Source of the DNA: Planctomycetota bacterium
Lineage (GTDB): Bacteria; Planctomycetota; SZUA-567; H5-PLA8
Assembly (NCBI GenBank): GCA_038227875.1
Contig: JBBRPR010000112.1
Span: 1-14,285, forward strand
Reading direction: 5' to 3'
Length of the DNA: 14,285 nucleotides
This document shows, piece after piece, positions 10,686-12,101 of the stretch. How positions within the stretch are numbered: the first letter of the stretch is position 1; each line of letters starts with the position of its first letter. The notes beneath the pieces are model-generated. The model made no database searches. It saw only the letters and a list, made by a program, of their open reading frames with translations, and was not told the origin of the DNA. The position numbers and the translations under genes were made by a program.

Positions 10686-10713
10686 TTGACTTTGCCGAAT
10701 TAGTGGATAGAGT
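10686..10713 (+). promoter_or_regulatory. Sigma70-type promoter for the peptide operon
   Basis: TTGACT (10686-10691), 16-bp spacer, TAGAGT (10708-10713), about 30 bp upstream of the GGAGG-preceded ATG at 10743. Confidence 0.55.
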
Positions 10714-10742
10714 GCACCGCGGGGTCATCCCTCGGAGGCACT

Positions 10743-10961
10743 ATGTCCCGCATTTCAACAGCAGTGCTCTTGGCCATGCTGGTTTTGGCCGGAGCCATGG
10801 GTCTGAAAACAGTTGTTACCACGCACGGAGACAGTTCCGTGATGATGGCCAACGGCTCGGCGCCAGTTCCGCCGACGCCTTGGCGCAATGGTTCGGCACC
10901 GGTTCCGCCGACGCCATGGAAGAACGGTTCGGCTCCAGTTCCGCCGACACCCTGGAAATAG
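10743..10961 (+). CDS. Small secreted multi-core peptide precursor (signal peptide + 3x NGSAPVPPTPW[K/R])
   Basis: GGAGG RBS, a Sec-like N-terminus (MSRISTAVLLAMLVLAGAMG), and three 12-aa repeats whose 11-aa cores differ only synonymously. Confidence 0.85.
   Translation: MSRISTAVLLAMLVLAGAMGLKTVVTTHGDSSVMMANGSAPVPPTPWRNGSAPVPPTPWKNGSAPVPPTPWK
10851..10958 (+). repeat. 3 x 36-bp coding tandem repeat
   Basis: Units at 10851-10886, 10887-10922 and 10923-10958. Confidence 0.95.
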
Positions 10962-11004
10962 TTAGCGCGGTGTAAGCCGCGGTAGACCAGGGCGAGAGGA
11001 AATC

Positions 11005-11703
11005 GTGCCTGGTCCACTGGAATACAGCATCTGGTTCCTAGGCGCTCTTTTTGAGGCGGCCGTAGTGGTGTGTTCACTTCTTCGCGGACCCTTCCGGCGT
11101 TACTTTACCCTGAACTTGTATATGTCCATGTCCTTCCTGGTAACCTTGGGGCGCTACTTCGTTTTCACCAAGCACGGACTGACCTCCCCGGAATACACCT
11201 ACTTCTACTACTATTCAGACGCTATTCTGACCATCTGCCTGTATTTCGCGCTGATGGGTCTTTACGCGATTGTGTTCGAGGAGCTTCAGGCAGCGCTGCG
11301 GCTGCGGGTTTTCATGATGTTGCTGCTGATCGGAACCACGCTGTTTTCCTATAGCGTCGTGCATCAGTCGGAAGCGCGGATGCTCACGCATTACATCGTA
11401 GAGATCTCGCAGAACCTGTATTTCGTCGGCCTGGTGCTCACCTATGTGTTGTGGGCAGCGCTGCTCAAGTTGCACGAGAGCCGCGTTCGCGTCATCCAGA
11501 TCGTGCTTTCCCTAGGCGTGTACTTCAGCATCAATGCGGCGAACTACGCGCTGCATAACGCGTACCCGAATCTGCGCGTGATCTGGGAATATCTTCCGCC
11601 CGTCGCGGGGATGCTCCTGCCGGTGGCCTGGATTTATGCATTCATGAGATTTGACGAAGAGGCACGATTAACACCCGCGCGCCTTGCGGTGGTGCCGCGA
11701 TGA
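11005..11703 (+). CDS. Uncharacterised integral membrane protein with ~7 TM helices
   Basis: 232 aa, GTG start with a GAGG RBS, seven hydrophobic segments by eye, short loops, no soluble domain. Confidence 0.85.
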   Translation: MPGPLEYSIWFLGALFEAAVVVCSLLRGPFRRYFTLNLYMSMSFLVTLGRYFVFTKHGLTSPEYTYFYYYSDAILTICLYFALMGLYAIVFEELQAALRLRVFMMLLLIGTTLFSYSVVHQSEARMLTHYIVEISQNLYFVGLVLTYVLWAALLKLHESRVRVIQIVLSLGVYFSINAANYALHNAYPNLRVIWEYLPPVAGMLLPVAWIYAFMRFDEEARLTPARLAVVPR

Positions 11704-12101
11704 TGGCCGGAGTGATCTTAGTTTTTTCCGTGGCTGCCTTAATGCAGTTCTTTGTGTCCTATTGCCGATCTTTGATCGCCGCTTCTTCGCGGCGGGCCCT
11801 GTCGCCGGATGTGCAAGACGTAATCGGGATTGAACGCGGCGCCAAGGGCGAGGATTTCGAACGGGTCATGCAGTTCCTGCACCTGTGCCCGGAACGGCGC
11901 GAAGACCGCAACGGTATTCAAGCGATTGGCGCATACTTCCGCTTGCTGGGAGCGGTGGGCAAAACGTTGGGAACGCTTCTGCCTTCGCTGCGAGTGTGGA
12001 CGGAATTGGAGCGTTCGCAGTGCGCATACTTCGTGGCGGTGGCGCTGGACCGCCGCATCGCGTATAGCCGCGACATGCTGGCCGATCAGATGTCCGCGTA
12101 G
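11700..12101 (+). CDS. Hypothetical protein with an N-terminal membrane anchor
   Basis: 133 aa. ATGA overlap with the 7TM stop, hydrophobic N-terminus (MMAGVILVFSVAALMQFFVSYC), host-like codon usage. Confidence 0.8.
   Translation: MMAGVILVFSVAALMQFFVSYCRSLIAASSRRALSPDVQDVIGIERGAKGEDFERVMQFLHLCPERREDRNGIQAIGAYFRLLGAVGKTLGTLLPSLRVWTELERSQCAYFVAVALDRRIAYSRDMLADQMSA

Follow-up and report, generated by a model that had tools for sequence, protein, structure and literature searches.

We examined a cassette of three genes, all on the plus strand of contig JBBRPR010000112.1 (assembly GCA_038227875.1, deposited as a Planctomycetota bacterium); the whole contig, 14,285 nucleotides (nt) in length, is referred to here as the window. 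The genes specify a small peptide precursor with tandem repeats, a seven-transmembrane-helix (7TM) protein and a 133-amino-acid partner protein with a single membrane helix (Table 1). The trio is a conserved, linked three-gene module of Acidobacteriota, and the repeated core of the peptide has evolved in step with the outer half of the 7TM protein, as judged from aligned sequences and a predicted model. An original prediction, made from the sequence of this one locus alone, had described a promoter, a 72-residue open reading frame (ORF) with three cores, a gap of 43 nt between the stop of that ORF and the start of the 7TM ORF, and an ATGA overlap shared by the 7TM and partner ORFs (11700-11703), and all of these were recovered where it had placed them.

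Table 1. Features of the cassette and its flanks, with positions in the window
Feature	Position	Strand	Description
Conserved upstream element	10547..10590	+	palindrome GGTAC-N4-GTACC (10547-10560), TTGACC (10562-10567), 17 nt, TAACCT (10585-10590)
Small hairpin	10622..10637	+	CCAGGC-GAAT-GTTTGG, then CGAAA; in relatives yAGGC-GAAA-GCCTr
Promoter-like site, sigma-70-type	10686..10713	+	TTGACT-16-TAGAGT, from a consensus scan
Shine-Dalgarno	10734..10738	+	GGAGG, 4 nt 5' of ATG
Repeat peptide precursor gene	10743..10961	+	72 amino acids; N-terminal K/R, 17-residue hydrophobic stretch, HGDSSVMMA, three cores
Repeat units	10851..10958	+	3 x 36 nt, each NGSAPVPPTPW plus R, K or K
Hairpin 1	10963..10984	+	predicted fold directly 3' of the peptide stop
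Hairpin 2	10985..11014	+	GACCAGGGCG...CGTGCCTGGTC; ribosome site in the loop; the 3' arm contains the GTG start and opening codons of the 7TM gene
7TM gene	11005..11703	+	GTG start, 232 amino acids, seven-helix membrane protein
Partner gene	11700..12101	+	133 amino acids; N-terminal membrane helix and helical cytoplasmic domain
RDD-family membrane protein gene	12222..13370	+	382 amino acids, Cys-rich N-terminus, Pfam RDD

The repeat peptide precursor

The precursor consists of MSRISTAVLLAMLVLAGAMGLKTVVTTHGDSSVMMA followed by three copies of NGSAPVPPTPW, which are closed by R, K and K, respectively. It opens with a basic MSR and the hydrophobic stretch, continues with the segment KTVVTTHGDSSVMMA, and ends in the three cores. 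Tandem Repeats Finder detected the repeat in the DNA with a 36-nt period (3.0 copies, 81% matches, 10850-10957), and the three units of the window differ from each other at 6-8 positions per pair. Within the part that encodes the 11-residue core there are 4-6 differences per pair, every one of them a synonymous change of a third position (14 synonymous, 0 non-synonymous), and only the R/K codon changes its meaning between units. Differences limited to synonymous sites inside the cores indicate that 10743-10961 is read in the translated frame, and they exclude chance, two overlapping alternative frames and a recent duplication of the DNA as explanations of the repeat. Across the related genes, differences between copies within the same gene amounted to 1221 synonymous and 24 non-synonymous changes (74 distinct genes, 232 unit pairs). 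By these patterns of substitution the 72-residue ORF is a real gene under strong selection, which holds its copies identical.

The number of copies per gene was one (7 genes), two (8), three (46), four (11) or five (2), and 39 distinct cores were found in 73 loci, with the profile N-G-[GSTA]-A-P-[VAQL]-P-P-[TV..]-P-[WYF]. Positions 3, 6, 9 and 11 vary, those at 3, 6 and 9 in a species-specific manner. Because these three positions are spaced three residues apart and a polyproline-II helix has three-fold geometry, they would all lie on one face of such a helix, with the Ala, Pro and aromatic residues on the other two. The N-terminal 36 residues retain the motifs LKT, HGDGS and [IVM]MA, the last of them directly before the first core, and A36 is invariant. 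Divergence was about even along the precursor, the mean pairwise distance coming to 0.33 in the N-terminal part, 0.36 over the 14 residues that precede the core and 0.30 within the core.

The N-terminus of the precursor reads as Sec-type and carries no double-glycine leader motif. The hydrophobic stretch is followed by a site of the form V-T-[AT] then H-G, which, as read from the sequence, fits the -3/-1 rule, and cleavage of a signal peptide is presumed. A single K or R occupies 122 of the 131 core junctions (none or another residue at the other 9), and 26 of 69 precursors stop exactly at the aromatic residue, without a basic one; for both reasons the units look like separate products, with the basic residue as a cleavable spacer and the functional unit ending in W, Y or F. 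Pfam scans of the window proteins and the neighbour ORFs recognised no protease gene in the cassette.

Linkage, distribution and co-variation of the three genes

Of 311 confirmed 7TM loci, the best 80, all in species-representative genomes and nearly all titled Acidobacteriota, Candidatus Acidiferrales or Acidoferrum, formed the close set in which linkage of the genes was followed. The 7TM gene and the partner gene were present in 80 of 80, an RDD gene lay downstream in 78, and the peptide gene was found upstream of the 7TM gene by tblastn in 78, the two misses (L016 and L030) being loci without upstream DNA. The 7TM family as a whole had 3024 database members at E <= 0.01, which formed 309 clusters at 50% identity. 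In the order of the closest relatives a 7TM gene was detected in 163 of 201 sampled genomes (E <= 1e-30), mostly as a single copy; six of these hits were in unpublished genomes, and without them the count was 157 of 195. A sample taken across the phylum gave a 7TM match in 20 of 401 genomes, or in 19 of 400 if one unpublished genome is left out.

More distant homologues were represented by 26 of the 30 loci from the phylum search, the four omitted being truncated. A small, signal-peptide-like ORF preceded the 7TM gene by 43-151 nt at 13 of the 26, and at another (L094) there was a long repeat ORF with its start beyond range. Eight of the upstream ORFs of distant loci bear tandem repeats rich in proline and aromatic residues but unrelated in sequence, for example STGLPMPPTPY x2, AAGPWPFPDDSAGGNI x3, AANMPVFPTPPAVKT x5 and VPMNPFPTGNIAA x5, and locus L092 has a 16-residue repeat peptide. 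A single-helix protein of 126-192 amino acids overlaps or adjoins the 3' end of the 7TM gene in several of the distant loci (uncounted). The surroundings of these loci are unrelated housekeeping genes, so the recurrence of peptide, 7TM protein and partner is not accounted for by inherited synteny. The scan of 7TM homologues for small upstream ORFs that had been proposed with the original prediction thus returned a peptide gene at nearly every close locus and at about half of the distant ones, and homologues that generally lack such a gene, the case it had named as contrary, were not what was found. No RDD gene lay beside the distant homologues within the short flanks examined, and the RDD protein was set aside as a core part on that ground; it may be a lineage-specific associate. 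Some genomes contain extra, very divergent 7TM paralogues (L112 in genome G061; L116 and L117 in G077, where there are up to 5 matches), some with a repeat peptide of their own and some with none, a pattern that suggests expansion of the family with orphan receptors.

For the analysis of co-variation, the 7TM protein was split by model and topology into halves facing the periplasm (outer) and the cytoplasm (inner), and pairwise divergence was compared over 72 distinct peptide-7TM pairs. The divergence of the core correlated at 0.47 with that of the outer half, at 0.31 with the inner half and at 0.29 with the partner. In partial Mantel tests, which overstate significance when applied to related sequences and here depend on a split taken from a predicted model, core and outer half gave r = 0.39 once the inner half was held constant, a value reached by 0 of 2000 permutations, and core and inner half gave r = -0.13 once the outer half was held constant. 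The controls behaved in the reverse manner (68 pairs each): the RDD protein correlated at 0.51 with the inner half given the outer and at 0.07 with the outer given the inner, and the corresponding values for the partner were 0.43 and 0.15. That both of these proteins go with the inner half means that the outer half is more than a better clock. The correlation of core and outer half was 0.475 given the RDD protein and 0.40 given the partner (again 68 pairs), and 20 of the 25 7TM columns most associated with the core fell in the outer half, compared with 78 of 155 variable columns overall. Outer-face residues that co-vary with the core are, in the numbering of the window protein, G13, H129, N177, L183, Y187, P198/P199 and G202. 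Co-variation of peptide and receptor, which had been put forward as a check from the single locus, is thus apparent in these sequences, and it is specific to the periplasmic half. A model of the complex between the 7TM protein (57-row alignment) and precursor residues 28-72 scored 0.02 against a mark of 0.32, and is taken as evidence in neither direction.

The membrane proteins, expression signals and genomic setting

The AlphaFold2 model of the 7TM protein (predicted local distance difference test score, pLDDT, 92.2; predicted template modelling score, pTM, 0.87) contains seven helices, at residues 4-27, 34-57, 62-90, 97-119, 126-156, 161-186 and 191-215. Lys plus Arg in the loops (±3 residues, 75 sequences) came to 12.7 inside and 2.7 outside, and by this asymmetry the N-terminus is periplasmic and the C-terminus cytoplasmic, that is, the topology is N-out. 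An alignment of 57 sequences, reaching down to 22% identity, has only four near-invariant residues, G58, S61, Y64 and Y68, which lie in a loop on the periplasmic side and at the beginning of helix 3; in the close clade they fall in an aromatic run (Y-x-Y-F-Y-Y-Y-S-D). The same alignment holds no conserved set of His, Cys or Ser residues of a catalytic type, which favours binding over enzymatic activity and speaks for a receptor-like rather than an enzyme-like protein.

None of the peptide, the 7TM protein and the partner found a match in Pfam, NCBIfam, PADLOC or PDB sequences, and Protein Atlas returned only unnamed acidobacterial clusters. A Pfam search (hmmscan) with the 7TM protein and 57 relatives gave no match to a 7TM family, AgrB, CPBP or a peptidase, so that the characterised but unrelated family (such as a transporter) to which the 7TM protein might have belonged did not appear. 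An anti-phage defence system was also considered and was rejected, as none of the four proteins had a PADLOC hit at E <= 0.01. Among structures, nearly all of the top 50 neighbours listed by VIA-align were chains with the fold of G-protein-coupled receptors (GPCRs), with Z from 14.0 (8oyx_B, root-mean-square deviation (rmsd) 4.3, 207 residues aligned) to 11.1, values that are within chance reach of helical bundles (about 14, by VIA-align's own note). The best Foldseek hit was bacteriorhodopsin, at E 0.024, and template modelling scores (TM-scores) in that search ran at about 0.33-0.56. The model is therefore no more than suggestive of a GPCR/rhodopsin-like fold. The signature of rhodopsins is the retinal Lys in helix 7, and that of class A GPCRs the motifs DRY and NPxxY; read from the sequence, helix 7 of the 7TM protein has no Lys, and neither motif is present.

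The AlphaFold2 model of the partner (pLDDT 84.8) shows one N-terminal membrane helix followed by a helical domain. By charge its N-terminus is out, and the helical domain, which covers approximately residues 30-133 and has conserved Arg and Cys positions, is cytoplasmic; its structural matches are generic helical ones. In all genomic examples the 7TM protein stands alone, at about 232 amino acids. In a 426-residue metagenomic protein (P0179), a 7TM domain is preceded by a ZAS-type anti-sigma zinc finger (PF13490; 26.8 bits, cut-off 22.2) and one additional helix; this helix, between the cytoplasmic domain and the bundle, fits the N-out topology. P0179 is a singleton, from a contig of 1790 bp; a search with it returned only itself, and no fused 7TM form was found in the 401 genomes, in a search for longer proteins or in a metagenome scan with P0179. 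As the sole hint of an output this protein, a real fusion or an artefact, is an unreplicated lead to which we give little weight. Another singleton (P0245), on a contig of about 2 kb, joins a receiver domain to the last two 7TM helices and looks like a fragment or chimera.

Signals for expression of the cassette are well preserved. In 24 of 24 aligned loci (7TM proteins 54-96% identical) the -35 sequence TTGAC is invariant and the -10 sequence TAgagT conserved, and GGAGG or a one-base variant precedes the ATG. A hairpin in the place of hairpin 1 was predicted in most of 24 folded loci, the sequences differing, and the intergenic stretch 10950-11020 as a whole, with both hairpins, had a fold z of -2.76. 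For hairpin 2, 88.9% of cells pair, compared with 29-49% for slid partners (59 sequences); 7 pairs are changed on both sides, and its covariation score was reached by 0 of 500 shuffles. Because this conserved hairpin holds the start codon of the 7TM gene, the peptide and 7TM genes would be expressed differently, and the arrangement fits an abundant peptide and scarce membrane proteins.

RNA data consisted of contigs from one metatranscriptome study and from a second, doubtful one, with small word shares of 0.04-0.19. The contigs of the first study (3 runs) span 10664/10673-11081 at a word depth of about 9, which takes in the entire peptide gene and 76 nt of the 7TM gene; most of the 7TM gene is uncovered, and this is no sign of silence. 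One contig bears a four-copy variant of the peptide. Coming from a single study, such contigs can give neither the starts nor the levels of transcripts, nor prove transcription; they do cover 10743-10961, the region whose lack of transcription had been raised as a possible objection, and lend weak support to the view that the peptide gene is transcribed. The RNA contigs of some relatives begin upstream of the main promoter. In that upstream region, the element at 10547-10590 is kept in aligned sequences of 24 and 32 loci and may comprise an operator and a second promoter, and the small hairpin has 6 pairs, 5 of them changed on both sides (RNAalifold, 32 sequences). Rfam contained no match for the conserved stretch upstream of the peptide promoter (10547-10655).

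The window is one entire contig (C112) of a 9.3-Mb assembly of 176 contigs. Its G+C content is 52.6%, compared with 59.6 ± 2.2% for the assembly, and its tetranucleotide distance from the assembly is at the 99th percentile (238 chunks). A 96%-identical copy of the 7TM protein sits in an acidobacterial metagenome-assembled genome. The contig has probably been mis-binned and belongs to an Acidiferrales-type order, and being foreign to that bin would account for the absence of the 7TM gene from all 60 relatives of the source assembly (G000).

Several other genes flank the cassette. Next to a tRNA-Met gene (10346-10420, minus strand) is that of a tyrosine integrase (8933-10210; 72.7 bits for Phage_integrase), and further upstream is the gene for a 772-residue Prim-Pol protein (6060-8378), just 3' of which, at 8398-8473, are two 9-nt tandem arrays, ACGCTTGCG x2.4 and AGCGTAGCA x3.2. 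The stretch 6060-10420 looks like a mobile element integrated at the tRNA and bordering the cassette. A relative of the integrase was present at 4 of 80 related loci, and the mobile element is thus variable and outside the module. On the other side, the RDD protein is well supported by Pfam (PF06271, residues 235-360, 70.2 bits against a gathering cut-off of 24.1); its N-terminus carries CxxC...CxxC, with a weak UPF0547 or zinc-ribbon-like match, and the protein also has a long, poorly conserved linker rich in Ala and Pro. Beyond it, on the minus strand (13392-14150), is a convergent gene for an ATP-binding cassette (ABC) ATPase that is MacB/LolD-like and has no peptidase domain. In many relatives, though not in the window, a gene for a pyridoxal-phosphate-dependent decarboxylase lies between the RDD and ABC ATPase genes, and the latter is followed by an HlyD-type adaptor gene in relatives. 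The ABC ATPase is about 83-97% identical between loci whose 7TM proteins are 53-96% identical, and looks like part of a housekeeping efflux or lipoprotein-release system, not a peptide exporter.

Function of the cassette and comparison with known systems

The explanation we prefer, tentatively and as one that falls a little short of being probable, is that the outer face of a receptor-like pair, formed by the 7TM protein and its partner, recognises an exported repeat peptide, the whole being a peptide-sensing module. A small, strongly expressed gene would make a Sec-exported protein with a tail of 1-5 identical epitopes, NG-x-AP-x-PP-x-P-[W/Y/F], which in this clade would probably be freed as peptides of 11-12 residues by cutting at the single K/R spacers. 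Recognition of the epitope would then take place at the periplasmic surface of the N-out seven-helix protein encoded with it, which would itself be made at a low level, with its start codon in the conserved hairpin, alongside the translationally coupled single-pass partner, and the cytoplasmic helical domain of the partner would relay the state of the 7TM protein. The most likely role of such a system would be autocrine or cell-to-cell peptide sensing. In comparison with the ligand-receptor-transducer cassette originally put forward, conserved linkage and co-variation have been added, and we infer the release of units, direct binding and a downstream output.

A number of points weigh against peptide sensing, in addition to the limits on the Mantel tests, fold scores and RNA contigs given above. 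Pfam searches with the remaining window proteins and with 44 ORFs neighbouring the cassette in 14 related loci gave no kinase or receiver domain, and no kinase, sigma factor or other signalling domain is recognisable in the cassette or close to it. Its neighbours are housekeeping genes, variable from locus to locus, and the sole regulator-type hits are HTH_3 proteins, at the distant loci L102 and L103. The cytoplasmic domain of the partner gave no informative fold match (best Z 7.9; Foldseek none below E 1), and 12 of the 26 distant loci had no upstream peptide ORF. Of the prohormone-like layout that had been proposed, the signal-like N-terminus and the K/R-separated cores hold for this locus, but the repeats of distant relatives are without basic spacers, and monobasic processing of a prohormone-like kind is limited, at best, to this clade. 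Signal peptides are usually less conserved than the N-terminal segment of this precursor, the hydrophobic part of which is about as conserved as the rest, and the segment may be retained as a membrane anchor or have a sequence-specific role in the membrane.

Such an anchor is central to one alternative, a structural envelope complex, in which the precursor would be packed by its N-terminal helix on the 7TM protein and partner, and the repeats would serve in the periplasm as a spacer or a multivalent tether rather than becoming free ligands. The unusually conserved hydrophobic N-terminus, with small-xxx-small motifs such as GAMG, the distant repeats that have no basic spacers and the core, housekeeping-like character of the locus would all suit this, and TonB is one known case of a proline-rich spacer in the periplasm. 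However, a range of 1-5 copies among close relatives is unlike a length-critical spacer, and selection for copies without any difference, whose residues at positions 3, 6 and 9 are species-specific, is better suited to recognition than to spacing. With, in addition, a site after the hydrophobic stretch that fits the rule for signal-peptide cleavage, and with 26 of 69 precursors ending exactly at the aromatic residue, we regard this explanation as unlikely. An equally unlikely one is that the 7TM protein and partner serve in the maturation or export of, or self-immunity to, a peptide resembling bacteriocins or ribosomally synthesized and post-translationally modified peptides (RiPPs), and bind a substrate or toxin and not a signal. 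Co-evolution with the outer face would suit that kind of recognition equally well, and a small precursor beside a polytopic membrane protein is also seen in AgrD/AgrB and in many bacteriocin-immunity pairs, but the 7TM protein has neither a conserved catalytic set of residues nor a match to the enzyme families searched. The motifs kept in the N-terminal part and the variable core are suggestive of a leader-core organisation, with divergence about the same throughout the precursor. No modifying enzyme is recognisable, no protein of the cassette matching an enzyme family as those of RiPP clusters do, and the double-glycine leader and C39-peptidase ABC exporter of class II bacteriocins are both missing. 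The peptide gene seems far better represented than the 7TM gene in the RNA contigs, which this explanation would also accommodate. Against it, the neighbouring ABC ATPase, whose gene is convergent and has an HlyD-type gene as its pair, and which is about 90% identical from locus to locus, looks to be a housekeeping protein; the core is neither cationic nor amphipathic; and a locus that is single-copy, syntenic and near-universal in its order is unlike typical accessory bacteriocin loci.

Since the close loci are all from one order, their synteny could be a matter of inheritance, and the peptide and membrane protein genes would then be neighbours by shared ancestry, with no functional link. This is very improbable: distant 7TM homologues (E 1e-5 to 1e-25), in other contexts, again have upstream of them an exported, proline-rich and often repeated peptide of unrelated sequence, and variation in the core is matched specifically in the outer half of the 7TM protein, a pattern that the control neighbours do not share.

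A more far-reaching form of the peptide-sensing explanation, which we consider doubtful, would make the cassette the counterpart, in bacteria, of the peptide-hormone and pheromone signalling of eukaryotes, with cut peptides read in polyproline-II form by a stand-alone receptor of GPCR fold and a single-pass transducer. If so, species-specific pairs of ligand and receptor would constitute private channels in soil communities, and three orphan protein families would gain a function at once. The 39 natural ligand variants, together with their partners, offer a test bed for the evolution of ligand-receptor specificity, and the module occurs in a dominant, poorly cultivated soil phylum, in about four-fifths of the sampled genomes of one order. 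Even as a maturation, immunity or envelope structure it would be a conserved and highly selected module that is annotated by no database. No description of the peptide, the 7TM family or the cassette was found in open-access full text or bioRxiv, in agreement with the earlier statement that no described system matches it; the cassette is new as a system, with a function that is proposed here, and none of its proteins is in a curated family.

In layout the cassette is closest to yeast alpha-factor and its receptor Ste2 and, among bacteria, to AgrD/AgrB, but it does not pass the defining tests of either. Other comparisons are more remote. The 7TMR-DISM and 5TMR-LYT proteins, sensor modules fused to output domains, likewise have a polytopic helical part in the bacterial inner membrane, but the present protein has no such Pfam match and is not fused to an output domain in genomic examples, and any output would pass through a separate coupled protein. 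Fungal Kex2-processed repeat proteins, dikaritins and apidaecin share with the present precursor a signal peptide followed by tandem proline-rich cores with an aromatic residue. However, those precursors are eukaryotic and need dedicated proteases, cyclases or oxidases, none of which is recognisable in the cassette, and they are not known to have a dedicated 7TM gene beside them. Proline-rich macrocyclic peptides of sponges (PMC10945851) are likewise reported as products of multi-core ribosomal precursors. The conserved leading part and variable cores that mark precursors of this type may also be present in the one described here.

Staphylococcal Agr resembles the cassette in its small precursor gene beside a polytopic membrane protein, in the joint diversification of peptide and membrane partner into specificity groups, and in the apparently stronger expression of the peptide gene relative to its partners. 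It differs in that the 7TM protein has no match to AgrB, that no histidine kinase or response regulator is found in or near the locus, and that the precursor has several copies of a core without the Cys needed for a thiolactone and opens with a Sec-type segment where that of Agr has an amphipathic helix. In yeast MFalpha1 a signal sequence and a short pro-region precede tandem copies of a short peptide with Trp and Pro; the copies are separated by basic residues and are identical within a species and different between species, all as in the present precursor, and the cognate partner is in both cases a seven-helix, N-out membrane protein. The Ste2 chain 7ad3_B was itself among the fold neighbours of the 7TM protein (Z 12.6, rmsd 4.4 over 210 residues), a likeness of a generic kind, without similarity in sequence. 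Unlike the alpha-factor precursor, which has KR plus Glu/Asp-Ala spacers and is processed by Kex2 and Ste13, the bacterial one has single K/R spacers and neither of these proteases. The bacterial system would be periplasmic, with ligand and receptor in one operon and thus in the same cell, and in place of G proteins the candidate transducer is the 133-residue single-pass protein. Known peptide communication in bacteria employs histidine kinases (Agr, Com) or cytoplasmic RRNPP receptors; if peptide sensing is correct, a dedicated 7TM protein with a multi-copy exported peptide would represent a third logic, convergent with the peptide signalling of yeast and animals.

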